A stretch of 64,000 nucleotides of DNA from contig DAIDHS010000014.1 in the NCBI GenBank assembly GCA_027451985.1, forward strand, positions 1,748 through 65,747. Reading direction: 5' to 3'. The DNA is from Elusimicrobiota bacterium. Lineage in GTDB: Bacteria; Elusimicrobiota; Elusimicrobia; UBA1565; UBA9628. How positions within the stretch are numbered: the stretch's first letter is position 1; the number at the start of each line of letters is the position of its first letter. The notes under the pieces are model-generated. The model worked only from the letters and a program-made list of their open reading frames with translations, ran no database searches and had not been told where the DNA came from. This document shows, in pieces, positions 4,386 through 53,846 of the stretch. A program made the position numbers and the translations under genes.

Positions 4386-5381
4386 TTATTTAAAGACAAA
4401 ATAAGCGGCTTCCTCAGCCACGTCGTTGCAACGCTGGCCCTGGGCGTCGGTCATCTTGGAGAGCATGTAGCCGTTCATGCCCCAGGACGTGCCCCAGCTG
4501 TTGCGCAGGATCCAGACGCCTTTACCCGGAGGCAGGTTGCCATTCTTGCCGAACTTAGCCCCCTGGTTATCCCAGCCCACGATGTTGATCATGTGATCGA
4601 TCTGCCCCATCTTGCAGCCGTTGTAGACACCGCTCTGGTAGTTTTCCCAGTCGCCCGTAGCGGCCGCCACGTCGACCGAAACCGGCTTGCCGCTCTTGGT
4701 CATATAGGCCTCGATATCCCGCTCGCTCGGACTGTGCCCCGGCTTGCCCAGCATGTGCCACGCTTTGATGCGCATGACCGGTCCCTGGGGCTTGGCCGGG
4801 CATTGGCCGGCGCCTTCCTGGTAGAAACAGCGGCCCTGCGGGTCTGAGCCGGCCAAGGGCTGGCCCGGGTGGATGAAGTCGTTAGCCGAGTCGAAGTCGC
4901 CGCCGTTGCAGCCGTCGGCCTCGGGAGAGTTGTCCACGAGCCACTCCTGGGAAAGATCCCCGGGGTCCTTGCCGTCGGCGATCGCGTGCCCGTCGCGGTT
5001 GGTCGCGGTCAGGCTGAAGGCCCAGCAGGATCCGCACTGGCCCTGGTCCTGGATGGGAGTGAGCTCGGGGCGGAGATCAAAGGTATTGGGAATGGGAAGA
5101 GACATGCGCTGGGCAGAAACGGAGGCGGATTCCCAGTCGGACTTGGGCAGGGATTTATGGATAAACCCCGTCTCATGGATGGACTCGTACGGAGCGATCG
5201 TGTAGGTCTTCACGACGCTTGAGGAGAACTTCTTGCTCTGCGCCTCCTTCCCGAACGATCTGACGACGGAATTTACGCCCGTTCCCTGATCGAAATTAAC
5301 CTGGGTCTTGTCCGAAGCGAAGCTTTGGGCGCCGGCGATGAAGACGCAAGCGAAAGCCAAGACGAGGCATCTTTTAATCAT
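4386..5381 (-). CDS. secreted papain-family (C1A) cysteine peptidase
   Basis: 331 aa with signal peptide MIKRCLVLAFACVFIAGAQS. Catalytic motifs QGQCGSCWAFS (Cys), DHMINIVGWD (His), NSWGTSWGMNGY (Asn/Trp). Confidence 0.8.
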   Translation of the reverse strand: MIKRCLVLAFACVFIAGAQSFASDKTQVNFDQGTGVNSVVRSFGKEAQSKKFSSSVVKTYTIAPYESIHETGFIHKSLPKSDWESASVSAQRMSLPIPNTFDLRPELTPIQDQGQCGSCWAFSLTATNRDGHAIADGKDPGDLSQEWLVDNSPEADGCNGGDFDSANDFIHPGQPLAGSDPQGRCFYQEGAGQCPAKPQGPVMRIKAWHMLGKPGHSPSERDIEAYMTKSGKPVSVDVAAATGDWENYQSGVYNGCKMGQIDHMINIVGWDNQGAKFGKNGNLPPGKGVWILRNSWGTSWGMNGYMLSKMTDAQGQRCNDVAEEAAYFVFK

Positions 5382-7152: not shown

Positions 7153-9902
7153 GCCATCTGCCTCGATATGAGATCTTTAAAAAGGCCGGGCGTGTCGGCC
7201 AACGCGTCGAAAGTCCCTTCCTGCGCGATGCGGCCCTTATCGAGGACGATGACTCGATCAGCGTTGCGAATCGTGCTCAAGCGGTGCGCGATGACCACGC
7301 GCGTGACGTGCAAGGCATCCAGGCTCTTGGTCACCACTTCCTGCGTGGTGTTGTCCAGCGCGCTGGTGGCCTCGTCGAAATAAATCTTCTTGGGGCGCCG
7401 AGCCAAGGCTCGGGCGATCAAGAGGCGCTGGCGCTGGCCGCCCGACAAGGTCGAGGCGCCTTCGCTGATCAAGGTGAACATGCCCATGGGCATGTCGCGG
7501 ATGTCCTGCGCCACGCCGGCCAGCTCCGCCGCGGCCCAGGCGTCCTCCACACTCAAGGGCAGGCTGCCCACGATGTTGCGGTAGATGTCCCCGGCTAAGA
7601 GCCGGCCGTTTTGCAGCACCACGCCGATTTGCCGGCGGACTGAGCCGGCGTCGACTTTGGAAAGGTCCTGCCCGTCGTAATAAATGGATCCGATTTCGGG
7701 CGTCTCAAATCCCAGCAGAAGCCGCAGGATGGTCGACTTGCCCGATCCGGAGGGCCCCACCAGCGCCACGAACTCTCCGGGCTCGACGCGGAAGGACACG
7801 TCGTCAAGGACCTTGGGGCCGTCCGGGCGGTAGCGGAAGCTGACGTGGTTGACTTCTAGGCGCCCGCTCAAGGCCTTCGAGGCGGGCTTGGCCGAGTCCG
7901 CCTCTGGCAGCGTCTCCATGATGGGCTTGGCGTTTTTCCAGATGGGGATGACGTTCAAAATCGAAAAGGCCGTGCCGCTCAGGGAGATGCCGGCGTTTAA
8001 GAAGACCGTGAAAGCCGCCATGAAGGCGACAAAATCGCCCACCGAGAGCTTCAGGGGCGTCCCGCCGGCGGCCGGATGCATCTTCATATGCACCAACCAA
8101 AAGATTGCCGCGCTGGTGAACACCGGAATCATTGCGTTGAAGACCTGAATGAGATTGTCGTAGGCGTTGGCGGCGAAGGTGAGCTTGGTCGACTCGGCGT
8201 AGGACTTGCTCCACACCGCGAAGCCCCGGCGCTCGGCCGCGGCCACGCGGAGCTTTGAGATGCCGCCCAAAAGCTGGAAGACCAGCCCGGAAATCTTGTT
8301 GTCGAGGGCGGTGAGCTTGTAGCGCAGGCGCAGGGACATCCACAGACAGGCGCTATAGACCGCGACCGCGGCGGCCAGCATGCCGCAGGCGTAGAGCGCC
8401 AGGCCGGAGTCGTAGTAGAAAAGCAGGAAGAGGTTCAAGGCCGCGTGCAGGCTGTTGAGTACCGTCGTCATGACACTGCCGCTTAAGATCTGCTGGATGG
8501 AATTGACCGCGTTGGCGCGCTCGGCCAGTTCTCCCACGCTGTAGTCGCGAAAAAAAGGCACTGGCAGGCGCAAGAGCCTGTCCCAAAGCGCGGCCTGAAC
8601 CTCACCGTTGTACCTGCCGTTAATGCGCATCATGGCCACGCTTTGCGTCAGGCCGAAGAAAGCCGTAGCCAGCGCCGCCGCAACCAGGGCCAGCGTGTAC
8701 TGCATTAGGGCGCCGTACTCGGTGTTGGGGATGACCGTGTCGAAGAGCTTGCCCGTGACCCACGGGGCGGCCAGCCCCAGGACGGCGCCTGCTCCGGCCA
8801 TGAGTGCCAGCATCAGGAGATCGCCGCGCACTTCCTTGGCCACGAAACCCGCCACGTCCCGAAAGCGCACGACGGAATCCGGGAAGGGGCGGTAGAAGAC
8901 ATAGCCGAACGGCGAAAGGGAGCGCGCGGCCGCGGCGTCCACCGGGCGCCGCGAACCGTCCTCAGGATTAAAAATCTCGTAGGAGCCGGGCTTGACCGGC
9001 AGCAGGGCCACGGGCGGCCCGCAGAAATCACCATCGGGAGACGGCGGAGCGCCTAGCGCGGGAGCCGCCTCATCCGCGGGTTTTTCCGGAGCGGGCCCGC
9101 CCAAAGAGGCCAGAATAGGCCCGCAGTCGCTCTTCCACCAAGCCCCGCGCAAGGCGATGCGGCGCGAGCGCACGCGTGAGGCTTGACAGACGGCATCCAA
9201 GTAAAATCGGGGCGCGGGGTAGTCCGCGCGCCCGCCGGGATGAGAAAATTCGACGCCCATGGCTTCGCCCACCGCCAGCATGGCGCCGAAGAAGTGGTCG
9301 TCTTCGGGCGCGGCCAAGGCCGCGCCGGCCTTGGGCTCGATGATGCGGGCGAGGCGATTTAAGGCTGCGCGGTAAGCGCGCTCATCCGAAGCCTTGCGCC
9401 GCTCCAGACGTTTGGCGTCCTCAGCTTCGCCTTTTTCGGCCAAGTCCGCCAGGCGTTCCATCAATCCGTCTTGCAGGCTTAAAACCTGATCCAGAGCGGC
9501 CTCCTCCTCCGCGACCTTCGCGTCAGCCGATCCTGTCGGAGAGAAAGCGTCCGCCATGATTTGAAGGTAGAGTCTAAAATCCGCCGCGGCGCCCGCCGTC
9601 CCGGCGAACTCGCGCGCGTCTTGGCGGCGCACGGAGGCGCCCTGCCGCCCGACCGCGAGCAGGCTAAAGCCGCGCCGCGGCGGGGCACCCGCAAAAATAC
9701 GCCCGGCCGGAGCGGTGAAAACGTGCCGCCGCGGCCCCACAGGAACGCCGTTTTGGGCGCGCACGGCAAAGACGTCGACCTGGCCCGATTCGACCTTGTA
9801 AATCCAGCGCGCGTCGTCCAAGATGAGCGGGTGGTTGCCGGACAAAGACATTGCGGCCTGGGCTTCGTAGCTCATCTTATTGGCCCCCGGCCAAGCGAGC
9901 AT
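7149..9902 (-). CDS. NHLM-type bacteriocin export ABC transporter (permease+ATPase) with N-terminal cNMP-binding-like domain
   Basis: 917 aa. N-terminal beta-roll domain (ILDDARWIYKVESGQVDVFAV), six-helix permease domain, Walker A GPSGSGKST, signature LSGGQRQR, Walker B IYFDEATSALD. Confidence 0.8.
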   Translation of the reverse strand: MLAWPGANKMSYEAQAAMSLSGNHPLILDDARWIYKVESGQVDVFAVRAQNGVPVGPRRHVFTAPAGRIFAGAPPRRGFSLLAVGRQGASVRRQDAREFAGTAGAAADFRLYLQIMADAFSPTGSADAKVAEEEAALDQVLSLQDGLMERLADLAEKGEAEDAKRLERRKASDERAYRAALNRLARIIEPKAGAALAAPEDDHFFGAMLAVGEAMGVEFSHPGGRADYPAPRFYLDAVCQASRVRSRRIALRGAWWKSDCGPILASLGGPAPEKPADEAAPALGAPPSPDGDFCGPPVALLPVKPGSYEIFNPEDGSRRPVDAAAARSLSPFGYVFYRPFPDSVVRFRDVAGFVAKEVRGDLLMLALMAGAGAVLGLAAPWVTGKLFDTVIPNTEYGALMQYTLALVAAALATAFFGLTQSVAMMRINGRYNGEVQAALWDRLLRLPVPFFRDYSVGELAERANAVNSIQQILSGSVMTTVLNSLHAALNLFLLFYYDSGLALYACGMLAAAVAVYSACLWMSLRLRYKLTALDNKISGLVFQLLGGISKLRVAAAERRGFAVWSKSYAESTKLTFAANAYDNLIQVFNAMIPVFTSAAIFWLVHMKMHPAAGGTPLKLSVGDFVAFMAAFTVFLNAGISLSGTAFSILNVIPIWKNAKPIMETLPEADSAKPASKALSGRLEVNHVSFRYRPDGPKVLDDVSFRVEPGEFVALVGPSGSGKSTILRLLLGFETPEIGSIYYDGQDLSKVDAGSVRRQIGVVLQNGRLLAGDIYRNIVGSLPLSVEDAWAAAELAGVAQDIRDMPMGMFTLISEGASTLSGGQRQRLLIARALARRPKKIYFDEATSALDNTTQEVVTKSLDALHVTRVVIAHRLSTIRNADRVIVLDKGRIAQEGTFDALADTPGLFKDLISRQMA

Positions 9903-12057
9903 ACGCTCCGCCTTGGACTTTCAACTCGTCGTGGGTGCCGCGCTCGACCGTGCGGCCTTCCTCGAGCACGATGATTTCGTCCGCATCGCGCACGGTGCTA
10001 AGTCGGTGCGCGATGATGATGCAGGTGCAGCCGCGGCGGCGCAGGTTCTCGTCGATAGTTTTCTCCGTCACTGTGTCTAAGGCGCTGGTGGCCTCGTCCA
10101 AGACCAGCACGCGCGGGTTCAAGACCAAGGCGCGCGCGATTTCCAGGCGCTGGCGCTGGCCGCCGCTCAAATTGGCGCCGCCCTCCTCCAAAATCGCGTC
10201 GTAGCCGCCGACGCGCGCCACGATGTCGTTGTGGATGCAGGCGTCCTTGGCCGCGGCGACCATCTGTTCCTCGGGCACGGTGTCGTCCCAGAGGGTCAAG
10301 TTGTCTCGCACCGTCCCGGCGAAGAGCGCGATGTCTTGATCCACCAAGGCCACGGAGTTGGCCAGGATCTCGCGCGGAATGCTCGCGCGCGGCGTCCCGT
10401 CGAAAAGAATTTCCCCGCTCCAGGGCGGGTAGAGGCCCGTGACGATTTTGGAGATGGTCGACTTGCCGCAGCCGCTGGGGCCCACCAGCGCCACGCGGCT
10501 TCCGGGCTTCAACGACAGGCTGAAGTCCTCGATAAGCGGTTCCGAGAGCCGAGAGTAGCCGAAGCTCACGCCGCGCAACTCGACCTGGCCGGAGAGCTTG
10601 GCCGCGGGCGCGGCGCCGGATTTCTGCGCCGCCTCGTCCGCCGCCACATCCGCGTCCACAGGATAGGCCATGACGTCGTCAAGGCGGTTCATGTCGCCCT
10701 CGAATTCCTGGAAGGTGCCCATGAGCGCCACGCAGCGGTTGACCGGCTCGATGAAGCTGGCCATGAGGCTTTGGAAAGCGACCAAGAGGCCCAGAGTCAT
10801 GTGCCCGCGCATCACGCTCAAGCCTCCGAAAGCCAGGACCGCGGCCGTGGCCAGGGCCTGCAAAAGCGGCGGAATCTGTAGAAAGGGCTGCGTGACTTCG
10901 TTCAACTGCATGGTGAAGCTCACCAGCTTGGCCTGGTAACCGGCCCAAGTGGAGAAGAAATCCGACTCTCCCCCGGTCGCCTTCAGGGTCTCGATTGCCT
11001 GGAGCCCTCCCATGGACACGCCCATGAGCTTGCCCTGCTCGCGCACAAGGCGGCGGTTGCCGTCCACGCGCTTTCGCTGGATGGCGCGCGCGGCCGCGTA
11101 GTTGGCGCCCAGGGCGCCGACGGCGACCAAGGTCAAGAGCGGATTGATGGCGAACATCAGGGCGGCGTAGAAGATCACCATGACCGCGTCGACCGCGGCG
11201 CCGGCCATGTCCGCGGCCATGATGTGGGCCAGGCGCTTGTTGATGGCCACGCGGTTGGCGATGTCGCCTCCGAAGCGCTGGGAGTAGAAGTCCACGGGCA
11301 GGCGCAACACGTGCCATAGGAACTTGCCCGAGCCCGAAACCGAGAGCTTGGTCTCCAGGCGGTTGAGATAGTGCTTCTGCAACCAGGTGAGCGCACCGCG
11401 CATGACGGCGGTGATGAGCATGCCTAGAAGAAGGGGCTTGATCCAGTCCGTCATCTGGAGCACGAGGTAGTCATCTACGAAAATGCGGATGAATGTCGGG
11501 ATGACCAAGCCCGGCACTACCAGGGCCAGGCCCGCGATGACGATGTAGGAAAGCGCCTTCTTAGAGGACTCCATGCGCTGGCGCAGGCCCGGCCACAAGG
11601 AGGGCTTCACGCCGCCTTTCTTGAACTCGGGCCCCGGCTTAAAGGCCAGCGTCACGCCTGTGAAACACTCGTCGAACTCCTCATCCGAAACCGTCCGCGG
11701 CCCGGCCGCCGGATCGGCGAGATAGACGACGCCTTTACCGAAGCCCTCGACCACCAGGAAATGGTTGAAATTCCAGAAGACGATGAGCGGCATATCCATT
11801 TGGCGAAGTTCGGCGGGCTCCTTGCGGTAGCCCGTGGCCTCTAATCCATAAGTCCGCGCCGCGCGCAGGATGTTGCGCGCGTTGCTGCCGTCGCGCGAAA
11901 CGCCGCAGGCCTTGCGCAGTTCCTCGAGCGGGACGTAGCGCCCGAAATAGCCCAACACCATGGCCAAGGACGCGGCGCCGCACTCGACCGCCTCCATCTG
12001 CAGGACCGTCGGGACGCGGGCCCGGCGGAAGCTTTCGGATAATTTCAGGAGAGACAC
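9877..12057 (-). CDS. C39 peptidase-domain bacteriocin/lanthipeptide ABC transporter (LanT-like, double-glycine leader protease + exporter)
   Basis: 726 aa. N-terminal C39 domain with catalytic Cys in MEAVECGAASLAMVLGYFG, a permease domain, Walker A GPSGCGKST, LSGGQRQR, LVLDEATSALD. Confidence 0.85.
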   Translation of the reverse strand: MSLLKLSESFRRARVPTVLQMEAVECGAASLAMVLGYFGRYVPLEELRKACGVSRDGSNARNILRAARTYGLEATGYRKEPAELRQMDMPLIVFWNFNHFLVVEGFGKGVVYLADPAAGPRTVSDEEFDECFTGVTLAFKPGPEFKKGGVKPSLWPGLRQRMESSKKALSYIVIAGLALVVPGLVIPTFIRIFVDDYLVLQMTDWIKPLLLGMLITAVMRGALTWLQKHYLNRLETKLSVSGSGKFLWHVLRLPVDFYSQRFGGDIANRVAINKRLAHIMAADMAGAAVDAVMVIFYAALMFAINPLLTLVAVGALGANYAAARAIQRKRVDGNRRLVREQGKLMGVSMGGLQAIETLKATGGESDFFSTWAGYQAKLVSFTMQLNEVTQPFLQIPPLLQALATAAVLAFGGLSVMRGHMTLGLLVAFQSLMASFIEPVNRCVALMGTFQEFEGDMNRLDDVMAYPVDADVAADEAAQKSGAAPAAKLSGQVELRGVSFGYSRLSEPLIEDFSLSLKPGSRVALVGPSGCGKSTISKIVTGLYPPWSGEILFDGTPRASIPREILANSVALVDQDIALFAGTVRDNLTLWDDTVPEEQMVAAAKDACIHNDIVARVGGYDAILEEGGANLSGGQRQRLEIARALVLNPRVLVLDEATSALDTVTEKTIDENLRRRGCTCIIIAHRLSTVRDADEIIVLEEGRTVERGTHDELKVQGGAYARLAGGQ

Positions 12058-12064: not shown

Positions 12065-13123
12065 TTAGAGCCCCAGCAGGGACTTCATCGCCGGGATGAC
12101 CAAGGTGATGGGGCGGCGCTTTTTGACGATGACGCGCACGTCGCACATCATGCCCGCCTTGATTTTCTGCTGCGGGCCGTCCGATGAGGACCAGCGGTAG
12201 CCGCTAAAATTATTGGGGTCCGCCTCCAGGGAGATACGCAGGATGTAGGGCGCGCCGCCGGAGGTGAGTTCCTGATCGAGGATATTGTTGCGGGTCAACT
12301 CGAAAATCATCTGCTCACGCGCGGGGAACTCGGAGACATAATAGACTTGGCCCTTCAAGTAGCCGTACTCTTCCTTCTTGATCGTGCGCGGCGAGACCTC
12401 CGCGGCCATGCCGGGCTTGGCCTGGTTGCCCACGCTCGGGATAAAGGCGATGGCGTTCAAAGACTGCTTCTCGCTGAAATAGGTCATGAGGAAAGCGCCT
12501 TTTTGGATGAGCGTGCCAGGCGAGGTCATGACTTCCACGATGCGCCCGCTCTTGGGCGCGATCACGTCCGTGGCTTCCTTCAACTCCATGCCGTTCAAGG
12601 CCAGCTGATTCTGGAGGGACTTGAGCTGGCTTTTGGCCTGGGCAAGGTTCTGCTTGGCGTTCTCCAGCACGTCTGGCGCGATGAGCCCCCCCTGCAGGGC
12701 CACCCGCATGGAGTCGACCTGGCGCTGCAGGCTACGCATGTGTTCCTGCGTGGCCGCGATCTTCTGGCTGATTTCCGCGTTCGAGCGGGCGCCGCGCTGC
12801 GCCATGTTGCTCTGATCCAGCGTCGCGACGACTTGTCCCTTTGTTACTGCGTCGCCTTCGCTGACGAAAATCTGCTTGACGATTCCGGTCCCGGGCGAGT
12901 AGATATTGTCCACGCCGCGGGGCGGCATGATGATGGCGGGACCGGAAATCGTCGTGGGAATGCTGCCGAAGACGGACCAGATGAGCGCTAAAGCGATGAG
13001 TCCGCAGAGCGTCCACAGGGCATACCAGCCCTTGGGTGTGGTCACCTGCATCAGGTAGTCTAGTTGCTCGGGAGAGGAGAGGCGTTCCAGAGAGGTTTTT
13101 CTAAAGATTTCCTGCTCGGCCAT
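12065..13123 (-). CDS. HlyD-family membrane fusion / NHLM bacteriocin secretion protein
   Basis: 352 aa. An N-terminal TM helix (WYALWTLCGLIALALIWSVF), a long coiled-coil (LQRQVDSMRVALQ...LKSLQNQLALN) and a C-terminal beta-barrel domain. Confidence 0.8.
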   Translation of the reverse strand: MAEQEIFRKTSLERLSSPEQLDYLMQVTTPKGWYALWTLCGLIALALIWSVFGSIPTTISGPAIIMPPRGVDNIYSPGTGIVKQIFVSEGDAVTKGQVVATLDQSNMAQRGARSNAEISQKIAATQEHMRSLQRQVDSMRVALQGGLIAPDVLENAKQNLAQAKSQLKSLQNQLALNGMELKEATDVIAPKSGRIVEVMTSPGTLIQKGAFLMTYFSEKQSLNAIAFIPSVGNQAKPGMAAEVSPRTIKKEEYGYLKGQVYYVSEFPAREQMIFELTRNNILDQELTSGGAPYILRISLEADPNNFSGYRWSSSDGPQQKIKAGMMCDVRVIVKKRRPITLVIPAMKSLLGL

Positions 13124-13155: not shown

Positions 13156-16100
13156 TCAAGCGAAGATTTCGACCTCGGGGAGTCCCTTTTGCAAAAAACG
13201 CGCGGCCGCGTAGCCGACGCCCGATTGACCCTGAAAAAATCCAGGGGTGGGCAGGCCCGCATCGAAGCCCAGGCGCAGGGCGCCTCGCTCGGTGCGGGAC
13301 GCCACGAGCGCGATGTCTCGCCGCGCCCACCGCGCCAAATTATCGTCTTTAAGAGCCTCTGCGGCGCGCTTTAAAAAAAGAGCGACGCCCACCTTGCCGC
13401 AGCACAAGTGATCGACGGGAGGCTCATCCGCGTGGCGCCAAGCCGCCGTGGCGGCTTGGCGCACGCTCAGCGAAAAATCGACACCCAGAAGCCGGCCCGT
13501 TTCCAAAAGCCCAAGACCCACGCCCGCCGCTCCGCCGCACCAGCTGGAGACAAAGCGCGGTTTGTCTCCCTGCCCGAAATCGCGCCAGTCCGGCCAGCCG
13601 CCCGCCTCGGCGTCGTAGCGCGCGGCGCAAAGCTCGGCCAAGTCGCGGGCCGCGGCGGCCCACGGGCCACCGCGCTTGGCCATGCGCGCGCAGACGTAGG
13701 CCGCGCCCGCCGCGCCGTGCGCTAAGCCCAATTCCGGACGCGCGTTTCGGCGCGACGCGGCCGCGCTGAAGAGCTCCCGGCTCGCCGCCAGAAATTCTTT
13801 CGAGAGCTCCTCGCGGCGACGCTCGATTTCGCCCGCGAGCGCGGCGGGAAGCCCCTGCGGCAGGACCTCCAGCGCCAAAAGAGCGCCCGGGATTCCCCCC
13901 AGCAGGTCCGCTCGGCGCGCGTCCTCCAGAGACAGGTATTTGGGCGAAAGCGCCGCCGCCAGATGGGCCGCGTCCAGGACTAGAGATTCATCTTTCAGGA
14001 TGCGGCCGATAGCCGATAAGCCGTAGGGCAAGGAGGCCGCGCCCGTGCCCACGCCCAGGCCCATGATGCGCACCATCCGCTCCATGCCGTATCGCTGCGC
14101 GTCGCGGGCGGCGAGCTTGGCCGTGGCCAGGGCCGTGCGGCGGGCGCGCTCGTGCCCCCCGACGGCGTGGGCCGCGGCCAGGAAAAGGGAAATGCCCATC
14201 GCCCCGTCGAAAAGCCGGCCGCCCACGGGACCGTACTGCCAGTTGCGCGAACGTTCGTCGTAGCACAGGGACAGCCACCAAGCCTCGTCGTTTTCCGCCA
14301 TCAGGGCGCCGTCTAAGATGCCGTCGGCCAGGCGTAAAATCACGCTCTTAAGCGTCTCCGGCGAGGCGTCGGCCTCTTCGGCGCCCTCCGGAGCGGACTT
14401 CCCCTGCGCCGCTTTGGGCATAAAAAAGCTCGCGCGCAGGAACTGCCTTTGCCGGGATAAATCAGGCTCGCCCAGCGCGGACAAGCGCCCGCGGACCAGG
14501 TCCAGCGGCGCTTCGTTCATCGTCAGAATCCGCCGCCCGCCGCAAGACGCGTACGCCCGGCCCGGCGCCGTTTTAAAAACCGGAACGTCCCGGTAAGACA
14601 ACGTCGCGATTTCCTCAACGGCGCACAAGCCGAGGCCCCGCCGCTCTTCCTCGTCTTCCACGCCGGAGAGCGCCCGCCACAAGGGCTCGAACACCAAGCC
14701 ATGGGCCGCGCCGTCCTTGAGCGCCGCGGGCTCCAGAGACTTTTGCAGCAGGTGGGCGTAGACCTTGGTGTTGCGCAGGATAAAGCGGGTCGGGATATCC
14801 CGGAGAGGCTCGAGCGCGGCGGAAGCGGCTTCGCGGATCTCGGGATGCAGAGCCTGGCCATAGGCCTCGGTAAAGCCCGTTTCGATGTCGTCTAGATAAT
14901 CGGCCGCGGCGACGGGCCGGCCGTTTAAAAGCGGTTTGTTCGCGCTGGGCGGGGCGGCCGTCCGGACCTTGGCCACGCGCATGCGGTCGCGGTTGGGAAA
15001 TTGCCACGCCAGGACTTCTCCCGATTCGCCCGCGCTTCCCCCCGCCAATCCGCTCGACTCCAAAACCCGGTCGCCGCCCAAAAACTCGTAGCGGGGCAGA
15101 AGCGCCGTGCGCACGACCGATTCAAAGAAGAAGCGGTGCAGCGCCAAGTTGGACGCGCCAAAGGCGTCCGCTCCCATACGCGGCCTCGGGCAGCACACGG
15201 TCTCCAAATCGATGGGATAAGGCCCCGCGGCGGTCGCGACGATGTTCTCGTGATGCAGGTCCGAGGCGCCCAGCAGGTACATGTGGAAGAGCAGCTCTCC
15301 CGCCGCCTTGAAATATCTCCGGACTTCGACCTCGGTTTTAAAATCGGCGCGGCGGGCAAATTCGCAGTAGCCGTAGCCGTCGCGGCCCAGTACGCGCAGG
15401 CGACCTAAGCTTGAGGCAAAACCCGCGGCGCCGATGCCGTCCAAGTAGGCGCCAAACCACGCCTCGGCCGCCAATGATTTGGGCTTATAAAGGAAGCGTG
15501 CGCCGCCTTCCGATTCCAGCACGGCCACGGTCTTTCCGCCCTCGTGCGGATCCGAGACGCCGAATTGGACGTGCCGCGCGCGCGCGGGCGCGCCTCCCAC
15601 GACGAAGAGCCGGACGACTTCCGGCCAATCCTCGGTCAAACGGGAAACGAACAGGGTCATGTTCCTGCGCCAATTTTCCAGCAAAACGGCCATGACGCGC
15701 AGAAGGACCGGGTATTCCCCGAAGAAAGCCCGGAAGCCGTCTTCCTGAAATTTAAGGATGAAGGCGCGGAAAGCGGCGTCTGACTCCGCGTCGAAACCGG
15801 AGAGGCTTTCGCCCTCCAGGTTTTTAAAAACGGCGAACTCAGCCGCGAGGCAATAGGCCGAAACGCCGCACAAGTTGTTGAGTAGATCGTGCCGTAAATC
15901 GTCCCAGGCCTCCGCCGCCAGCGGAGCCTCGGGAACAGCCGCCGCGCAAGAGCTCTGAAGACGCGCAAGCTCGTGATGCGTCAGGGCCGACCAGACGGGG
16001 CCAAACGCCACGTCCGCGTCGGGCAAAACGGCTCCGCTTTGCGAATTTCTCAGCACGCCGGAGAAAAACTCGACGATGTCCACAGCTGCGGGGACCCAGC

Positions 16101-16299
16101 GTTCGTCATCAGGAGGCGATCCGCCGAAGGCTTTGCGCTGTTCCAAAAGTCCGGGAGTGAGCGGATCGATGGCCACGCGCCATGCCTCCACGTCCAGGCC
16201 CCGCGCGCCGTCGGCCGAAAGCCGCTCGGACAAAAGGCGCGCTTTGGGTAGAAGCGCCTGAACGAAGGCTTCCGGCGGGGCGAAGGACGCGGCGCTCAC
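13156..16299 (-). CDS. class II lanthipeptide synthetase LanM (ProcM-like, CCG zinc motif)
   Basis: The DUF4135 dehydratase domain carries the conserved DLHHENIV. The C-terminal LanC-like cyclase has GLAHGAAG, SWCGGAAG (WCxG) and HLCCGKVG (CCG instead of CHG). The start is set at the GTG overlapping the upstream TGA stop (GTGA at 16296-16299); the first 207 codons of ORF 13156..16917 overlap the JmjC gene in another frame and hold no Met. Confidence 0.85.
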   Translation of the reverse strand: MSAASFAPPEAFVQALLPKARLLSERLSADGARGLDVEAWRVAIDPLTPGLLEQRKAFGGSPPDDERWVPAAVDIVEFFSGVLRNSQSGAVLPDADVAFGPVWSALTHHELARLQSSCAAAVPEAPLAAEAWDDLRHDLLNNLCGVSAYCLAAEFAVFKNLEGESLSGFDAESDAAFRAFILKFQEDGFRAFFGEYPVLLRVMAVLLENWRRNMTLFVSRLTEDWPEVVRLFVVGGAPARARHVQFGVSDPHEGGKTVAVLESEGGARFLYKPKSLAAEAWFGAYLDGIGAAGFASSLGRLRVLGRDGYGYCEFARRADFKTEVEVRRYFKAAGELLFHMYLLGASDLHHENIVATAAGPYPIDLETVCCPRPRMGADAFGASNLALHRFFFESVVRTALLPRYEFLGGDRVLESSGLAGGSAGESGEVLAWQFPNRDRMRVAKVRTAAPPSANKPLLNGRPVAAADYLDDIETGFTEAYGQALHPEIREAASAALEPLRDIPTRFILRNTKVYAHLLQKSLEPAALKDGAAHGLVFEPLWRALSGVEDEEERRGLGLCAVEEIATLSYRDVPVFKTAPGRAYASCGGRRILTMNEAPLDLVRGRLSALGEPDLSRQRQFLRASFFMPKAAQGKSAPEGAEEADASPETLKSVILRLADGILDGALMAENDEAWWLSLCYDERSRNWQYGPVGGRLFDGAMGISLFLAAAHAVGGHERARRTALATAKLAARDAQRYGMERMVRIMGLGVGTGAASLPYGLSAIGRILKDESLVLDAAHLAAALSPKYLSLEDARRADLLGGIPGALLALEVLPQGLPAALAGEIERRREELSKEFLAASRELFSAAASRRNARPELGLAHGAAGAAYVCARMAKRGGPWAAAARDLAELCAARYDAEAGGWPDWRDFGQGDKPRFVSSWCGGAAGVGLGLLETGRLLGVDFSLSVRQAATAAWRHADEPPVDHLCCGKVGVALFLKRAAEALKDDNLARWARRDIALVASRTERGALRLGFDAGLPTPGFFQGQSGVGYAAARFLQKGLPEVEIFA

Positions 16300-17027
16300 G
16301 CCTCCTCCCGGCGCAGACGCCACGCCTGCGGGTCGTCCGCGATCGCATCCAGAAATGCGGAGAGGTTCGTGTGGTTGACGAAGTTGAAGCTCAAAGTCAC
16401 GGAAGGCTCGAGGCTGCGCGCGGAGTGCACCTGCCCGGCGGGCACGAGCAGCACGTCGCCGGGCTCCAGATCCGCTCTCTTGACCGCGGACCGCGCCTTT
16501 TCTCCGGCCGGGCCGTGCAGGCTTACGCACTTGCGGCCGATGATTTGCGCGAGCCAGGCGTGCGTGGAAAACAAATCCGTGTGCGGCAAAGTCTCGGTCC
16601 CTGCGGGGCCGATGAAAAGCCAGCCGAACTTCTTCAAATACCACTCCTTGTCCGCGGGGGAGCGGAAATCGAGCAGCGTGCGGCAGAACTCCGGAAAAGC
16701 GAAGTCCTCCAGCAGCTCGGGGTGCTTCGCGAAAGGAGAATATTGCAGGGTATACCAGCGCGGCTCGCTCTCGGGTCCGGCGCCGCCTAAAATCCAATCG
16801 ATGAAGCCGGCCAGAAGCACTTTCTTGCCGCGCTTGGTTCCGCCGATGTTGTCGCCCACGACCAACTCGTCTTGCCCCAGCGCCTCGCGCAAAAAATCCC
16901 AGGTCCAGCGCCCGCACGCCCGCCAGTGCTTGGCGTAGCCTTTAAAGAGCGCCGGCGCGCCCGGAGAAGCGAGCAGCGCGCGCTCGGCCTCCTCTGCGGA
17001 AATGCCCTCTTTGAAAACGCGGATCAT
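16296..17027 (-). CDS. JmjC/cupin-type Fe(II)/2-oxoglutarate-dependent oxygenase (putative peptide hydroxylase)
   Basis: 243 aa from the internal Met MIRVFKEG. An HxD...H triad is visible (LPHTDLFSTHAW ... AGQVHSA) in a beta-roll context. ATGA overlap with the upstream gene; its stop overlaps the LanM GTG. Confidence 0.6.
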   Translation of the reverse strand: MIRVFKEGISAEEAERALLASPGAPALFKGYAKHWRACGRWTWDFLREALGQDELVVGDNIGGTKRGKKVLLAGFIDWILGGAGPESEPRWYTLQYSPFAKHPELLEDFAFPEFCRTLLDFRSPADKEWYLKKFGWLFIGPAGTETLPHTDLFSTHAWLAQIIGRKCVSLHGPAGEKARSAVKRADLEPGDVLLVPAGQVHSARSLEPSVTLSFNFVNHTNLSAFLDAIADDPQAWRLRREEA

Positions 17028-17926
17028 GACGGCGCGGCGGCGGAAAGGGCGGAGCGGCGGCGGATCTCCGCCCCGAAGCGATCCGTCAAGACGCCCGAGA
17101 GCCTCTCCAGCAGCCGGTCGCACAGATCTCGCGGAGTGTAGCCCGAAATGCGCGAGAGGCTGATGCCGATGAACCGGCAGTCCATATCCGAGCTTTTAAG
17201 CCACGCGGCGAAGCGATCCAGGCGCGCGAAGGCTTCCTCGTCCGTGGCCGTGCGGCCCTCGCCGCGCCCCTCCGAACGACCGAAGACCAGCAGGTGCCGT
17301 CCGTCGGGCGAGATCGTGGGGCTGACCGGAGCGCCGGGGGAAATGCGCAGAAGATGATACGGGTTGCTCTTAAAGCTTTCAAACTCGCCCGCGGTGACCT
17401 CAAGAGCGACCGGAGCGCGGTCCGGAGTCAGGTTGCAGGAGAAATAGTCCAGGCAGACGTCGAGCGCGACCGGGCCTTGCGGGCGGATGTCGGAAAGAGC
17501 CTTGACCCGAGCGAAGCGCGCCTGGGCGGCGTCCGGCTTGCCTTCCAATTCGGGCGGCAGCGGCCCTTTGGCCCAGACCATGGCGCGGCGCGCCGGATCA
17601 GTCGTGAAAACGCAGACCGGGCCGTCGTAGGGGATCGTGGCCTCGTGCTCGCGGTGCCACCACACCTCGCCGAAGAGGCCGTGAAGCATGGCCGGCCAGA
17701 TGAAGTTGGCGATGTTGAGCTCCTTCAAGACGAAGGCGCGTGTCTCCGCGAGGCCCGCTTCCGGCTTGAGCATCGGGCCCTGCAGCGTGGGCAAGTCCAT
17801 GTCCGAGTGCTCGTCGATGTGGACCAAGGAACTGCCCCGCGCGGGAAGGACGCCCCTGACGGCGGCCTCCTTCCAGAAGTAGAACGCCTCGTGGTGCTCC
17901 TCGAAAACGACGCAGGAGACGGGCAT
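17024..17926 (-). CDS. UPF0489-like (C5orf22-like) domain protein, function unknown
   Basis: 300 aa from MPVSCVVFEEHHEAFYFW. The motif block VFEEHHE...LVHIDEHSDMD resembles UPF0489 as I recall it, with low certainty. TGATG overlap with the upstream GNAT. Confidence 0.4.
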   Translation of the reverse strand: MPVSCVVFEEHHEAFYFWKEAAVRGVLPARGSSLVHIDEHSDMDLPTLQGPMLKPEAGLAETRAFVLKELNIANFIWPAMLHGLFGEVWWHREHEATIPYDGPVCVFTTDPARRAMVWAKGPLPPELEGKPDAAQARFARVKALSDIRPQGPVALDVCLDYFSCNLTPDRAPVALEVTAGEFESFKSNPYHLLRISPGAPVSPTISPDGRHLLVFGRSEGRGEGRTATDEEAFARLDRFAAWLKSSDMDCRFIGISLSRISGYTPRDLCDRLLERLSGVLTDRFGAEIRRRSALSAAAPS

Positions 17927-18858
17927 CAGCTCCGCGCGGGGGCGAGCAGGACTTCGAGCCCGCGCAAAGTCCAGGTCCTGTCCAGGCAGGGCACCAAGTG
18001 CTTGTTCAAGGAGCGCAGCCACTCGGGATATTCCAGCGGCACGTCGAACTCGGCGCAGCTGGGCGAACCTTTTTTCAAAAACATCTGGTAATGCGCGTTC
18101 ATGGCCGCGCGCAGGAGAAGCACGGCCGCGGCGCGGTGGCGCGAGGCGAAGTCCGGCTCGACCCAGAACTTGGTGTAGTAGAGCGTGTCCGGCTTCTCCG
18201 CGAAGCGGTGGGTCGCGAACCAGCCCTTGGCCTCGTCGCCCGCAAACAGCATCTGGCTCGTCTCCCAGTCGAGCTCACTTTGCCTAAAGCGCACGCCCAG
18301 GTGGGCCGGACCCCCGGCGCGCGAACCCCGCTCGATGGGGTCAAGCCCCTCGACGCGGGCTTTGGCCCAGGAAATCACGCGCCAATCGGCGGTCGAGGAT
18401 TCCCCCGCCCCCTTGGCCCAGCGCGGGATGTTCGCGATGCGGCTCTGTCCGAAGAAGATGCGCGTAAAAGGCGTCCCGTAGCCCGCCTTGATGATGGTCT
18501 TTTCCGCGGCTTCCAAGCCCGTGATGCGGCTGCCGTAATTCAAGGAAAGCCGCTCAAGATCAGGGGCGCGGGAAAGCTCTTCCCTCAAGCGGCGCAGCAA
18601 CGCGGCGCCGAGGCCTTGCCGGCGATATTCCGGCGCGACGTAGACGGAAAGCAGTTCGGCCCTATGCTCCGCGGCAATGAGACCGGCCAGAGCCAAGCCC
18701 TGCGGCTCGCCGCCTAAAGTCCGCGCGGCCGCGGCCAGCCAGGGAAATTCCTTCTTCGCGGCGCCTTCGGCGTAGGACGGGTAAGTGAGACCGGCCCAAG
18801 GGGCGAAGTCGGCTTCGGCGTTAAGGATGGAAATTTCGGAATCTAAAGCGGCGTTCAC
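17926..18858 (-). CDS. GNAT family N-acetyltransferase with C-terminal extension
   Basis: 310 aa. GNAT motif A is LSVYVAPEYRRQGLGAALLRRL. A C-terminal ~170 aa domain is of unknown function. Confidence 0.55.
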   Translation of the reverse strand: MNAALDSEISILNAEADFAPWAGLTYPSYAEGAAKKEFPWLAAAARTLGGEPQGLALAGLIAAEHRAELLSVYVAPEYRRQGLGAALLRRLREELSRAPDLERLSLNYGSRITGLEAAEKTIIKAGYGTPFTRIFFGQSRIANIPRWAKGAGESSTADWRVISWAKARVEGLDPIERGSRAGGPAHLGVRFRQSELDWETSQMLFAGDEAKGWFATHRFAEKPDTLYYTKFWVEPDFASRHRAAAVLLLRAAMNAHYQMFLKKGSPSCAEFDVPLEYPEWLRSLNKHLVPCLDRTWTLRGLEVLLAPARS

Positions 18859-18950
18859 GGGAGAAATCTCGGATTGGGGCTTTGCGCTCCGGAGCGCGGC
18901 CGAACTGCTCCGCGCCCCGGAGCGATGCCGTTTTAATTTTTCGGCCGAAA

Positions 18951-19268
18951 CTACATGCTCATCATGACGCAGGCCGAGGAGCCGCCGCAGCTCGCGCCGC
19001 AGCGCCCGCCGCCCGCGACTTTCTCAAGCTCGCTGTCCGAGAGCTCGCCGCCCGCCTTAACCAGATCGGGCACCACGACCACCAAGTCCGCGCCGTTGCG
19101 CGCCACGGCCTTGATGTTGAAGCCTTGCGGAAGCTCCTTGCCGGAGACTTCTTTGACCGCCGCGCTGGGGTTTTTGAGCGCCAGCTCGCGGAACTTCGCG
19201 TCCGTCGAAGCCTTGCGCGAGAACGCTTCCAAGGCTTTTTTTTGCTCGTCTTGGGTCCAGGGTTTCAT
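18951..19268 (-). CDS. lanthipeptide precursor A1 with NHLP (nitrile hydratase leader peptide)-type leader
   Basis: 105 aa. The leader is MKPWTQDEQKKALEAF...DAKFRELALKNP...LVVVVPDLVKAGGELSDSELEKVAGG. The predicted core is G-RCGASCGGSSACVMMSM, with 3 Cys and 4 Ser. Confidence 0.8.
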   Translation of the reverse strand: MKPWTQDEQKKALEAFSRKASTDAKFRELALKNPSAAVKEVSGKELPQGFNIKAVARNGADLVVVVPDLVKAGGELSDSELEKVAGGGRCGASCGGSSACVMMSM

Positions 19269-19331
19269 CGTTTTCTCCTTAAGAATAATTTAAACGGCCC
19301 GCCTTTCCTTTATATCGATTTGCAAATGCGC

Positions 19332-19694
19332 TTAAACGCAGGCTCCACCCACTCCCGGCACGTACGTAGGCCCCGGAGGCACCGTGGACGAAACCAGGCA
19401 GACCTGGCTGATACCGCAGCTTCCCGCGCAGCGTCCTCCCGCGACCTTCTCGAGTTCGCTGTCCGAGAGCTCGCCGCCCGCCTTGACCAGGTCGGGAACC
19501 ACAAGCACCATGTCCGCGCCGTCCCTCGCCACCGCCGCGACCTTAAAGCCCGCCGGCAGATCCTTGCCGGAGACTTCCTTGACCGCCGCGGCCGGATTCT
19601 TGAGCGCCAACTCGCGGAATTTCGCGTCCGTCGAGGCCTTGCGTGCGAACGCCTCCAAAGCCTTTTTCTTTTCGTCCTGCGTCCAAGGTTTCAT
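19332..19694 (-). CDS. lanthipeptide precursor A2 with NHLP-type leader
   Basis: 120 aa. The leader is almost identical to A1 and ends ...SDSELEKVAGG. The predicted core is RCAGSCGISQVCLVSSTVPPGPTYVPGVGGACV, with 4 Cys and 6 Ser/Thr. The ATG overlaps the upstream gene's stop (ATGA). Confidence 0.8.
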   Translation of the reverse strand: MKPWTQDEKKKALEAFARKASTDAKFRELALKNPAAAVKEVSGKDLPAGFKVAAVARDGADMVLVVPDLVKAGGELSDSELEKVAGGRCAGSCGISQVCLVSSTVPPGPTYVPGVGGACV

Positions 19695-20449
19695 GCGATT
19701 TTCTCCTTTCCCTCGAAAGCCGCGCGCGTCTCGCCGACGGCGGCAAGTTCCACGCGCAGATTAAAATTATCCGGAAGATGCCGCCCCATTATCCGGGCGG
19801 CGGCGCCGCGCGGATCGGACAAGAAGCGCCCCTTAAAGTCCGGCCGGGCCGCGGCGCGTTTCAAGACGGTTCGGCGTAGGCATTGGATTTCGAATTCGTT
19901 CGGAGGCGGCGCGGGCGGAAACACCTCGCCCTCGCCCAGCACGGTGATGCGCGCCGCCAAGGCCTGCCGCCAGCACTCGCGCGCGGCGGCGAGAACGTCC
20001 GCGAAATCCCGGACCGGCGCCAGCGGCGCGGCTTTCGCACCCGAATCGGCCACCAGGGCGCCGTAGCAGGCGAGCGCTTCCCGGAGCTTTTGAAGTTCAG
20101 CGCCACTAACGTCCGCGCCCAACGCACGCGCATCGAACGCCACGCATCGGGTGCGCGGCGCCGGAATGAAAACGGGGACGCAGGTCGCGCCGACGAACTC
20201 GGTCTCCATCAAATCAAAAAGAAATTCCCCGGCCCGGACGTCGAAAAGTTTGTGCCGCCGGATGAAGACGCCGCTTTCGGGATGGCGCCGCGCCAGAAAC
20301 AGGCTGAGGCGGCCCTCCAAGACAAGCCACGCGCGGCCCGGGGAGCCACACTGAACGTAGGGAACCCCGCCGGGGAGTTCTTGTCCGACGGCCTCGATGC
20401 GTTGCTCCAAGGTCCCGGGCTCCACTGTCATCTTAGAGGATGCTATCAT
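19691..20449 (-). CDS. cyclic-nucleotide-binding-like (beta-roll) domain protein, standalone
   Basis: 252 aa from MIASSKMTVEPG (SD-like aaaaagagaaat upstream). The N-terminal domain LVLEGRLSLFLARRHPESGVFIRRHKLFDVRAGEFLFDL resembles a cNMP-binding fold. The stop overlaps the A2 start. Confidence 0.45.
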   Translation of the reverse strand: MIASSKMTVEPGTLEQRIEAVGQELPGGVPYVQCGSPGRAWLVLEGRLSLFLARRHPESGVFIRRHKLFDVRAGEFLFDLMETEFVGATCVPVFIPAPRTRCVAFDARALGADVSGAELQKLREALACYGALVADSGAKAAPLAPVRDFADVLAAARECWRQALAARITVLGEGEVFPPAPPPNEFEIQCLRRTVLKRAAARPDFKGRFLSDPRGAAARIMGRHLPDNFNLRVELAAVGETRAAFEGKEKIA

Positions 20450-20468
20450 ATTTCTCTTTTTCGTCGTT

Positions 20469-21497
20469 TTAGCGGCCAAAAAAAGCACGAGCCGCAATCG
20501 CATTACAGATCAGATACGCGACGGGATAGAGCGCGCGGGAAGCGGAGCGCACGCGCGCCGCAGTCCGGGACGAGCGCGCTTGGGCCGCGCGATGAACCAC
20601 GACGATTTCCACTATGGACAACGCGGAAAAGACGAAGCAAATGAGGAAGAACGCGTCGATGTAGGTCAGATACGGTAGGTGCGGCAGGCTGCCCGAGATG
20701 ACGAACAAGAAGGCCACCATCGTCAGCGTGGCGCTCAAGGCCACGGAGAACTGAGCCGCCACGTCAGTCTCATTGATCCACAAGGCGCAGTAGGACACGA
20801 TGACCATGATAAAGAGCGGCAGGAACACCTTCCATATATAGTAGCCGTAGCGGCGCTTGATGAGCATGTTAAAGTCGATTTCTGGGATGCTGCCGCCCTT
20901 GCCGCCCAGCACCGACTCCGCGGGCACGGCCTTCATGCCGAGCATCTTCCACTGCGCCAGAAGCGCCCAAGGCTGGCTATTGATGCCGGTCTGCCCCGGG
21001 TCGGGGATGGGATTGACCACGTCCCGCTCATCGAGGAACGGCTGGATGACCACGGGCAGGACCTGCTCGTCGAAGGGAAAACGGTGGAAGCTCATCTGCA
21101 TGGTGAGGTCGTCCTCGAAGTCCTCCCAGAAAACCACCGTGCCGTCGGGCTTGCGCCGGACGTTGGTGCCCAGCTTGAAGAGCCCGTTGACGGCGTTGGC
21201 CATGATGACGTTGGGCGTCCAGATTTTAGCCGGATCGCAGAGCCGATCTTTGTCCTTGGGGCCGCGCGGAACGTACTTGAGTCGAGGATCCTTCCACTGC
21301 TCATAGAGGTATCCCCGGATGCGGAAGGTCTGCGCGACCTCGTCGACGCCCACCAAGTCGGTCACGTAGACGCCTACTTTGACAGGCACGCGCCCGCCGC
21401 TGGACGGCGGAGGAGGAGGAATTTGACGGGCCGAAGCCCGAAGCCCCGTGGACAGAAGAGGAATCAGGAGCGTAACGGCAATTGCGGTGCGCTTCAT
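20469..21497 (-). CDS. prokaryotic pentameric (Cys-loop family) ligand-gated ion channel homologue
   Basis: 342 aa. Signal peptide, ~200 aa beta-rich extracellular domain, then pre-M1/M1 RRYGYYIWKVFLPLFIMVIVSYCALWI (GLIC/ELIC-like R-x-Y..LP..F....S..A.W), M2 SVALSATLTMVAFLFVISGSLP, M3 and a short M4. Confidence 0.7.
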   Translation of the reverse strand: MKRTAIAVTLLIPLLSTGLRASARQIPPPPPSSGGRVPVKVGVYVTDLVGVDEVAQTFRIRGYLYEQWKDPRLKYVPRGPKDKDRLCDPAKIWTPNVIMANAVNGLFKLGTNVRRKPDGTVVFWEDFEDDLTMQMSFHRFPFDEQVLPVVIQPFLDERDVVNPIPDPGQTGINSQPWALLAQWKMLGMKAVPAESVLGGKGGSIPEIDFNMLIKRRYGYYIWKVFLPLFIMVIVSYCALWINETDVAAQFSVALSATLTMVAFLFVISGSLPHLPYLTYIDAFFLICFVFSALSIVEIVVVHRAAQARSSRTAARVRSASRALYPVAYLICNAIAARAFFGR

Positions 21498-53479: not shown

Positions 53480-53530
53480 GGAAATATTTCGCCCAAATAA
53501 CGTTTCAGTTAAACCGTATAAGGAAAGCCG

Positions 53531-53602
53531 TGGGCCCGCCAGGAATCGAACCCGGATCCTGTGGTTCGAAGCCACATACTCTATCCATTGAGCTACGGGC
53601 CC
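53531..53602 (-). tRNA. tRNA-Arg (anticodon TCG)
   Basis: Hand-folded: acceptor GGGCCCG/CGGGCCC, anticodon arm UGUGG-CUUCGAA-CCACA, T arm CCGGG-UUCGAUU-CCUGG, discriminator A, no encoded CCA. Confidence 0.85.
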
Positions 53603-53807
53603 AAGGTGTGTATTTTACCATGGCGCTAAAGCAATTCCTATAGACGCGCCAGGTGCGCAGGTGCGGGCGCGAGAGGTGGGCATATCGAAGGGTCATCGCA
53701 GGCGTGGAGTGCCCTAAAATCTCCTGCACGGCGCGCAAATCGGCGGTCTTCATCACGAAATGAGAGGCAAAGGTATGCCGGAGGTCGTGAAAGCAGAAAT
53801 GGGGCAC
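53603..53807 (-). pseudogene. tyrosine recombinase (phage integrase family) C-terminal remnant abutting tRNA-Arg
   Basis: Only the last ~50 aa of an integrase catalytic domain are present (HFCFHDLRHTFASHFV...ILGHSTPAMTLRYAHLS, with the R-H-R-Y elements). There is no upstream continuation, and the reading frame runs on through the tRNA only by chance. Confidence 0.55.
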
Positions 53808-53846
53808 GCCAGAGGCCTTCCTGGCCTTATTAAACAGCCGTTCAAA

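Follow-up and report, generated by a model that had tools for sequence, protein, structure and literature searches.

The A1/A2 locus and its gene content

The window, i.e., the whole stretch of 64,000 nt analysed here (contig DAIDHS010000014.1 of the Elusimicrobiota bacterium assembly GCA_027451985.1), contains a minus-strand locus with two precursor peptide genes, A1 and A2, in the order A2-A1-GNAT-arginase-JmjC-LanM, followed by HlyD, C39-ABC, ABC2, and TolC genes. A1 and A2 are probably the short and the long structural gene of a selidamide-type, phaeornamide-like cluster for peptides that are made by ribosomes and then modified post-translationally (RiPPs) in an uncultivated diderm bacterium, in which a single LanM would make the pair. 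Due to the GNAT, arginase, and JmjC genes situated between the precursor genes and the LanM gene, the locus is placed in the selidamide (phaeornamide-like) family, of which it is a predicted, uncharacterised member. The genes of the locus are as follows (aa, amino acids; ORF, open reading frame).

19332..19694, minus strand: A2, ORF of a long-type NHLP precursor, 120 aa (TIGR03793, 47.3 bits, slightly short of the curated cut-off of 50.9); leader of 87 aa with a terminal AGG, core RCAGSCGISQVCLVSSTVPPGPTYVPGVGGACV (33 aa, 4 Cys, 6 Ser/Thr)
18951..19268, minus strand: A1, ORF of a short-type NHLP precursor, 105 aa (TIGR03793, 48.2 bits, slightly short of the same cut-off); 87-aa leader ending in AGG and core GRCGASCGGSSACVMMSM (18 aa, 3 Cys, 4 Ser)
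17926..18858, minus strand: GNAT-family N-acyltransferase ("N"), 310 aa (PF00583, 45.7 bits, residues 18-107)
17024..17926, minus strand: peptide arginase homologue ("R"), 300 aa from an ATG overlapping the GNAT stop codon (PF12640, 57 bits)
16296..17027, minus strand: JmjC/Cupin_8 Fe(II)/2-oxoglutarate hydroxylase homologue ("I"), 243 aa (PF13621, 53.2 bits; PF08007, 25.2 bits, cut-off 22)
13156..16299, minus strand: class II LanM, 1047 aa from GTG 16299 with the Shine-Dalgarno sequence GGGAGGAGG (TIGR03897, 556 bits, cut-off 304)
12065..13123, minus strand: HlyD-type periplasmic adaptor of an NHLP bacteriocin system (TIGR03794, 280 bits, cut-off 156)
9877..12057, minus strand: NHLP export ABC transporter with N-terminal C39 peptidase (PF03412, 126 bits; TIGR03796, 1100 bits, cut-off 853)
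7149..9902, minus strand: second NHLP export ABC subunit, a permease/ATPase without peptidase domain (TIGR03797, 883 bits, cut-off 709)
5500..7152, minus strand: TolC-like outer-membrane efflux protein (PF02321, 109 bits)

The first-pass annotation had described two ORFs with NHLP-type leaders, both ending in ELSDSELEKVAGG (...ELEKVAGG), and had quoted their cores, all of which is correct; the view of A1 and A2 as LanM substrates with such leaders is supported as well. The GNAT, arginase, and JmjC genes had been overlooked in that annotation. An AGGAG Shine-Dalgarno sequence is located upstream of either gene. The leaders had been reported to differ at only a few positions. They are indeed close (87% amino acid identity, 82.8% nucleotide identity), but 11 differences in 87 residues are more than a few. 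TIGR03793 (leader_NHLP) is the top family match of both precursors and is covered from model residue 2 to 77 of 77 (NCBIfam), and the Nif11 model reached 17 bits only. Each of the two genes is the sole significant tblastn match of the other in the 64-kb window (E-values of 1.7e-52 and 8e-45), and no third precursor was found by tblastn of the leaders against the whole window; thus, exactly two precursors are present there.

Related loci are referred to by L numbers in the following. The closest one is L009 from an Elusimicrobiota metagenome-assembled genome (MAG), with 73-94% protein identity and the same gene order. Orthologues of A1 and A2 with 93-94% amino acid identity occur in this locus, which indicates that both are real genes under selection. 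In public records, the L009 orthologue of A2 is annotated as a hypothetical protein; thus, precursors of this kind are missed by standard annotation. Neither a terminator nor a promoter was found by a consensus scan of the minus strand near the precursor genes. The remaining genes of the window are housekeeping genes.

Stop and start codons overlap between the GNAT and arginase genes (TGATG), the arginase and JmjC genes (ATGA), and the JmjC and LanM genes (GTGA, with the LanM start at GTG 16299), suggesting translational coupling of N/R, R/I, and I/M. The JmjC gene lies in a different frame beneath the first ~200 codons of the longest LanM ORF. Its orthologue is called as a separate 242-aa gene in L001-L003, and the JmjC frame is 78-80% identical among the relatives, versus 55-57% in the alternative frame. 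A 1253-aa "LanM" (13156..16917) with an N-terminal extension of ~200 aa was considered and rejected; the extension has no Pfam match, and the JmjC gene is located there in the other frame.

The matches to TIGR03794, TIGR03796, and TIGR03797 all exceed the equivalog cut-offs. The C39-ABC transporter is predicted to cleave after Gly-Gly during export, and the TolC-like protein would complete a type-I-like export route across the diderm envelope.

A common scaffold of the two cores

The cores had been regarded as unrelated in the first-pass annotation, which is contradicted by their alignment. Aligned without gaps from the Arg residue, RCGASCGGSSACVMMSM (A1) and RCAGSCGISQVCLVSST (A2) are identical at 8 of 17 positions (R1, C2, S5, C6, G7, S9, C12, and S16), every Cys of A1 is matched, and both cores follow the pattern R-C-x-x-S-C-G-x-S-x-x-C-x-x-x-S, i.e., they belong to one family. 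Beyond this scaffold the A2 core continues for 16 extra residues (VPPGPTYVPGVGGACV). By this comparison A2 can be regarded as essentially an A1-like scaffold with a C-terminal extension (..STVPPGPTYVPGVGGACV).

The core start R-C-x-x-S/T-C is invariant across the precursor family. Examples of short-type cores are (G)RCGASCGGSSACVMMSM, GRCGASCAASCVFSSVL, and GDANRCGGSCVVSCGISAIV, and RCAASCAASCAVTSTVSIGLPGVGAVGGCI represents the long type. For A2, 14 homologues were obtained. In the 12 long-type sequences, the residues R, C, S, C, S, C, and S-T, the motif PGVG, and a penultimate or near-terminal Cys are invariant. Arg is the sole basic residue of each core and occupies position 1 in A2 and position 2 in A1. 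The A1 and A2 cores are devoid of Lys, and the Arg is kept without exception in the short and long cores. In selidamides, acylation occurs on the most N-terminal Lys or Orn, at position 1 in kamptornamide and nostolysamide and at position 2 in phaeornamide; thus, the core Arg at position 1 or 2 corresponds to the acylated site of these peptides.

With respect to L009, the long core is identical in 33 of 33 and the short core in 17 of 18 residues, compared to 91-94% identity of the leaders and 73% of LanM. Within the locus, the cores are thus under the strongest constraint. Prochlorosins show the reverse, and the pattern seen here speaks for two defined products. The C-terminal MMSM tail had been noted as unusual, which holds insofar as ends of this kind (VMMSM, VAMSL, AAMTM, and VMMSS) are confined to the subclade of the window; in other lineages the cores end with FSSVL, ISAIV, or VSQGF.

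Leaders of the short and the long precursor within the same locus are 84-87% identical in the window, L001, and L009, whereas 41-65% identity was observed in all other lineages. In addition, a two-residue core insertion (S-S-A-C or S-Q-V-C, compared to S-C elsewhere) is common to both genes and restricted to the clade of the window. These observations are consistent with a homogenisation of the 5' parts of A1 and A2 in this clade, i.e., concerted evolution by gene conversion or joint constraint.

In case of the short cores of the Vicinamibacteria/Opitutales-type loci (L011, L012, L030, L070, L072, L078, and L079), a spacer of 3-7 residues is situated between Gly-Gly and Arg-Cys. This spacer usually ends in Asn (GDAN, GGSGN, or VGDGN, each followed by RC). 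By analogy to some two-component lantibiotics, the spacer hints at a second N-terminal trimming of those short cores.

Occurrence of short and long precursors in other lineages

One long and one to three short precursor genes are located side by side in every contig that is long enough to judge. This arrangement was observed in at least 10 distinct lineages from metagenomic and MAG sequences and in at least three named phyla, namely in the window, L001-3, L004/5, L009/L067, L011/12/78, L030, and L070 as well as in L071/81, L072, L075/76, L077, and L079. Assigned MAGs among them include L009 (Elusimicrobiota), L011 and L012 (Vicinamibacteria), and L030 (Opitutales), and unassigned lineages occur as well. 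In contigs of sufficient length, GNAT and arginase genes and usually a JmjC gene come next after the pair, with a LanM gene nearby. Each core type keeps its own signature, e.g., the C-terminal PGVG...C of the long type. In L011 (1354..2247), L012 (1213..2112), and L030 (3075..3992), a second, divergent GNAT gene of the same family is located approximately 6-8 kb from the precursor-adjacent one.

The co-occurrence of long and short precursors across at least 10 lineages indicates that the pair is ancient and co-inherited, which speaks for a two-peptide product rather than for a substrate library as in case of ProcM, despite the ProcM-type CCG zinc site of the LanM. The two-component lantibiotic, which had been mentioned as an alternative to the library at the outset, gains support in this way. 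Only one LanM is encoded in the window and in the related loci. Due to the co-occurrence of both types beside these enzyme genes in many distant lineages, the products of A1 and A2 most likely act as a pair made by one LanM, similar to enterococcal cytolysin.

Modification enzymes

The best structural match of the arginase homologue is OspR (PDB 8BRP, E-value of 1.9e-30); on NF052474 it reached 170 bits compared to a cut-off of 350. Peptide arginases bind two Mn ions, for which His12, Asp39, His41, Asp43, Asp165 (bridging), and Asp167 are the ligands in OspR, and the ligands are situated in the motifs EEH.., DxHxD, and LDIDLDYFSC (PMC10028609, PMC12703449). Taking into account a +1 offset of the 8BRP chain numbering, five of the six ligands are kept in the window arginase. 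The motifs DEHSD and EEHHEAF are present, and the third motif reads LDVCLDYFSC, i.e., the equivalent of Asp165 is a Cys. This Cys is fixed in 8 out of 8 loci of the clade, and the other 46 arginase homologues examined, including those of the other short-plus-long lineages, keep Asp. Single-ligand mutants of the OspR DxHxD motif retain 5-14% activity. Due to this low activity and the replacement of the bridging Asp, activity or metal use of the arginase may differ. The fixation of the Cys in the clade, the conservation of the protein, the invariant core Arg, and the absence of Lys from the cores argue for a functional arginase, perhaps with altered metal use. The Asp-to-Cys change represents a natural experiment on the metal site of a young enzyme family.

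The GNAT contains the P-loop RRQGLG in its N-terminal lobe and a conserved C-terminal lobe of ~170 aa. It aligns over the full length with 12 GNATs from NHLP/arginase loci and is 27% identical over 266 of 310 residues (E-value of 7e-25) to the KspN-like GNAT of L014, a Kamptonema MAG locus. In L014, the osp and ksp clusters recur next to each other, and five different precursors are present. A 20-aa core of this locus (RRRGGSSRVITNTPGVPGCN) agrees with KspA, as described in the literature, in its length, its four Arg, and the residues Asn12 and Asn20. Comparison of the N- and C-lobes of the window GNAT by hhalign (probability 59%, E-value of 9e-5) gave a weak sign of a tandem-GNAT fold. Among solved PDB structures, no relative beyond generic GNATs was found, and the Pfam/NCBIfam label is that of a generic acetyltransferase only. 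Due to the absence of Lys from the cores and the coupling of leader cleavage to export, Orn would be the only amine acceptor available to a cytoplasmic GNAT.

The JmjC protein has the HxD...H triad, with HxD in LPHTD and the His in a distal position. Its best structural matches, JMJD5 (1e-12) and JMJD6 (6e-9), are Arg and Lys hydroxylases.

LanM and ring topology

The LanM comprises a DUF4135 (PF13575, 297 bits) and a LANC_like domain (PF05147, 121 bits). Its zinc site (WCGG and DHLCCG) is of the three-Cys CCG type, which is common to all LanMs of the arginase/GNAT loci examined. The CCG motif is regarded as distinctive of ProcM-like enzymes (PMC8524650), and LanMs of the CCG type (ProcM clade) cyclise in both directions; in case of the single-substrate enzyme NpuM, which has a CCG site, three of four rings are formed from a Cys situated N-terminal to its partner (bioRxiv 10.64898/2026.01.31.703028). 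The presence of CCG in NpuM and in the LanMs of arginase/GNAT loci shows that this motif does not imply a substrate library.

The pattern (C-x-x-S/T)x3 is found in most cores, and neither Ser nor Thr precedes the first Cys of any short or long core. At least one "reverse" ring is thus forced, if that Cys is used. The unusual ring topology suspected in the first-pass annotation from Cys residues preceding the Ser residues is in good agreement with this arrangement and with the documented reverse direction of CCG LanMs; reverse topology is expected for this enzyme clade. The A1 and A2 cores are probably tricyclic and tetracyclic, respectively.

Proposed pathway and comparison to characterised systems

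Only three pathways to selidamides are characterised, and one precursor type is used in each of them (PMC8784127, PMC13647313), and further putative selidamide clusters were noted in other phyla, including the Acidobacteria (PMC8784127). In pha/ksp-type pathways, core Arg is converted to Orn by the arginase, and PhaI hydroxylates the Orn (PMC8784127). Thioether rings are formed by LanM largely independently of the other steps of selidamide pathways. The following steps are derived by homology and by comparison to the pha and ksp pathways in the literature. The NHLP leaders would mediate recognition of both precursors. The only Arg of each core (Arg1 of A2, Arg2 of A1) would be hydrolysed by the arginase to ornithine, which would be hydroxylated by the JmjC enzyme, and the GNAT would transfer a fatty acyl group from acyl-CoA of the primary metabolism to the ornithine delta-amine. 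The CCG-type LanM would dehydrate Ser/Thr and close up to three (A1) or four (A2) thioether rings, at least the first one with the Cys N-terminal to its dehydroalanine partner. Finally, the C39-ABC/ABC2/HlyD/TolC system would cleave after Gly-Gly and export the products.

The phaeornamide (pha) locus of Pseudophaeobacter arcticus DSM 23566 (PMC8784127) shows the same order of NHLP precursor, GNAT, PF12640 arginase, PF08007 hydroxylase, LanM, and peptidase-containing exporter, and it shares the Gly-Gly junction and, with A1, the acceptor Arg at core position 2. This likeness refers to gene content and order. In contrast to the locus of the window, with two precursor types, 3-4 Cys, and repeated C-x-x-S, the pha locus has a single precursor with one methyllanthionine ring; a further difference is the Cys which replaces the bridging Asp in the arginase of the window. 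The kamptornamide (ksp) cluster of Kamptonema sp. PCC 6506 shares NHLP precursor, GNAT, arginase, and CCG-type LanM, and its acylated Orn at core position 1 matches Arg1 of A2, but it is devoid of a hydroxylase, its core contains four Arg and one ring, and no short/long pair on a shared scaffold is present. Nostolysamides (npu) of Nostoc punctiforme (Hubrich 2022; Weir et al. 2026, bioRxiv 10.64898/2026.01.31.703028) are polycyclic with four rings, three of which have the Cys N-terminal to dehydroalanine or dehydrobutyrine; they are made by a CCG LanM of the ProcM clade and acylated on residue 1, and NpuN is a predicted tandem GNAT whose P-loop lies in the N-terminal lobe. They differ by a Nif11 leader, Lys as acceptor, the lack of arginase and hydroxylase, and a single precursor.

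The landornamide (osp) system has an NHLP precursor, a LanM, and the peptide arginase OspR, which is the closest solved structure (8BRP), but it includes a radical S-adenosylmethionine epimerase, lacks GNAT and hydroxylase, and its ornithines stay free. Prochlorosins/ProcM and SyncM share the CCG site, rings in both directions, and NHLP/Nif11-type leaders; they differ by many precursors with hypervariable cores, compared to two precursors with highly conserved cores in the window. Enterococcal cytolysin consists of a long and a short subunit (CylLL and CylLS; PMC4550811), which are made by one LanM (CylM) and act synergistically. Its leaders and cores are unrelated, its host is Gram-positive, and ornithine, hydroxylation, and acylation are missing; the analogy is a functional one only.

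Pathways of the selidamide type are known, but the conserved combination of a short and a long precursor is undescribed, and a full-text literature search with the core strings found no paper describing the peptides. A further-reaching and more tentative proposal, which we regard as possible, is that the short-plus-long loci constitute a widespread, undescribed two-peptide selidamide subfamily, characterised by short and long polycyclic lanthipeptides with an N-terminal acyl-(hydroxy)ornithine-Cys head, the (C-x-x-S/T)x3 ring scaffold, one CCG LanM, and joint action of the peptides, with a Cys in place of the bridging Asp in the arginase of the window's clade. The locus of the window belongs to a well-populated subfamily from uncultured soil and sediment bacteria (Elusimicrobiota, Vicinamibacteria, and Opitutales), in which Cys-rich cores and a strictly conserved short-plus-long pair are found together with the full pha-type enzyme set. 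Provided that both peptides act jointly, they would represent the first two-component lipolanthipeptide, and also a compact system with four different modifications directed onto two scaffolds by one leader family. Selidamides are under development as tools for gene-encoded lipopeptides.

Alternative explanations

The first-pass annotation had favoured a ProcM-like combinatorial system, in which one promiscuous LanM modifies unrelated, fast-evolving cores behind conserved leaders. The CCG motif and the 87% identity of the A1 and A2 leaders fit such a system, but near-identical leaders are peculiar to the clade of the window, and CCG sites occur in the single-substrate NpuM and in all LanMs examined from arginase/GNAT loci as well. 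With two precursors only in 64 kb, homologous cores which share all Cys, and both core types conserved across phyla and more strongly than the leaders, this explanation is very improbable. The two genes could also encode independent, redundant paralogous lanthipeptides that use one enzyme set without any functional interaction. Multi-precursor RiPP loci are common, the copy number of the short type varies from one to three between lineages, and five different precursors occur in the Kamptonema locus L014. However, one would expect loss or drift of redundant paralogues in some lineages, whereas one long and at least one short precursor are present in every lineage with enough sequence (at least 10, in at least three named phyla) and each type retains its signature. 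We consider mere redundancy unlikely.

A third possibility are plain class II lanthipeptides, i.e., a dead arginase, a GNAT for N-terminal acetylation, self-protection, or regulation, and non-lipidated products which still contain Arg. The Cys at the Asp165 position, the loss of activity down to 5-14% in OspR DxHxD mutants, and the generic acetyltransferase label of the GNAT are in line with this possibility. On the other hand, apart from this site the arginase shows 82-83% conservation, including the five remaining ligands, which together with the fixation of the Cys in all eight clade loci speaks for a functional protein; in the sister lineages with short and long precursors (L004, L011, L012, L070, and L078), the canonical Asp occurs along with the same R-C cores. 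Orn as sole amine acceptor of a cytoplasmic GNAT and the homology of the GNAT over both lobes to a KspN-like enzyme also disagree with plain lanthipeptides, which are thus very unlikely.

Several observations weigh against the assignment of A1 and A2 to a lipidated, selidamide-type pair. The TIGR03793 scores of both precursors are just below the curated cut-off, and the bridging Asp of the arginase is replaced in the entire clade. The affiliation of the GNAT is judged from the KspN-like proxy of L014 with 27% identity, its AlphaFold2 (AF2) model, built on 5 sequences, is unreliable in the C-lobe (predicted local distance difference test, pLDDT, below 50), and acetyl and fatty-acyl transfer cannot be told apart from the sequence of such an enzyme. 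In case of nostolysamide, acylation left the measured activity unchanged. Regarding the pair, co-conservation does not prove synergy of two peptides. Classical two-component lantibiotics of the haloduracin or lacticin 3147 type usually have one dedicated LanM per peptide, in contrast to the single LanM here. Considering all evidence, a selidamide-type origin of the short and long precursors remains the probable explanation.

Flanking features of the locus

Two further features are located next to the precursor genes:

18885..18924, minus strand: GC-rich stem-loop of 15 bp, located within the 92 nt which separate A1 from the GNAT gene (minimum free energy of -43.5 kcal/mol, z-score of -2.2)
19691..20503, minus strand: clade-specific hypothetical protein of 246-270 aa, the stop codon of which overlaps with the start of A2 (ATGA)

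The stem-loop is not a canonical intrinsic terminator due to the lack of a U-tract. A stem of 15-16 bp with another stem sequence is situated at the same place in L009 (~9096..9133), L067, and L001 (~10345..10386). Covariation support is weak, with one formally compensatory pair. The hairpin is a probable attenuator or mRNA-stabilising element which would set the precursor-to-enzyme ratio.

The C-terminal ~45 aa of the 19691..20503 protein weakly resemble an NHLP leader (TIGR03793, E-value of 0.001, aa 209-251), and no significant BLASTP match of this ORF to A2 or to the ABC2 N-terminus was observed. Its sole homologue is a hypothetical protein of an Elusimicrobiota MAG (55%). The AF2 model (pLDDT 66.6), for which CRP-family regulators are the best Foldseek matches (E-value of 8.5e-5, TM-score of ~0.3), suggests a CRP/FNR-like cyclic nucleotide-binding beta-roll. 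The protein may be a regulator, an accessory protein, or the relic of a former precursor, and its membership in the pathway is uncertain.

Directly downstream of the TolC-like gene, a papain-family Peptidase_C1 gene is located (4386..5381, minus strand), whose product could be a trimming protease or unrelated to the pathway. Immediately upstream of the locus, a homologue of prokaryotic pentameric ligand-gated ion channels (Neur_chan_LBD and Neur_chan_memb) is encoded at 20469..21497 on the minus strand. This gene is syntenic in L001, L003, and L009 (81-82% identity) and absent from the distant short-plus-long loci. Elsewhere in the window, a low-GC patch (53530..56018; 48.6% compared to ~64%) adjoins a tRNA-Arg gene (53530..53602) and encodes a C-5 cytosine DNA methyltransferase (54774..56018). 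It is probably a small, horizontally acquired restriction-modification island.

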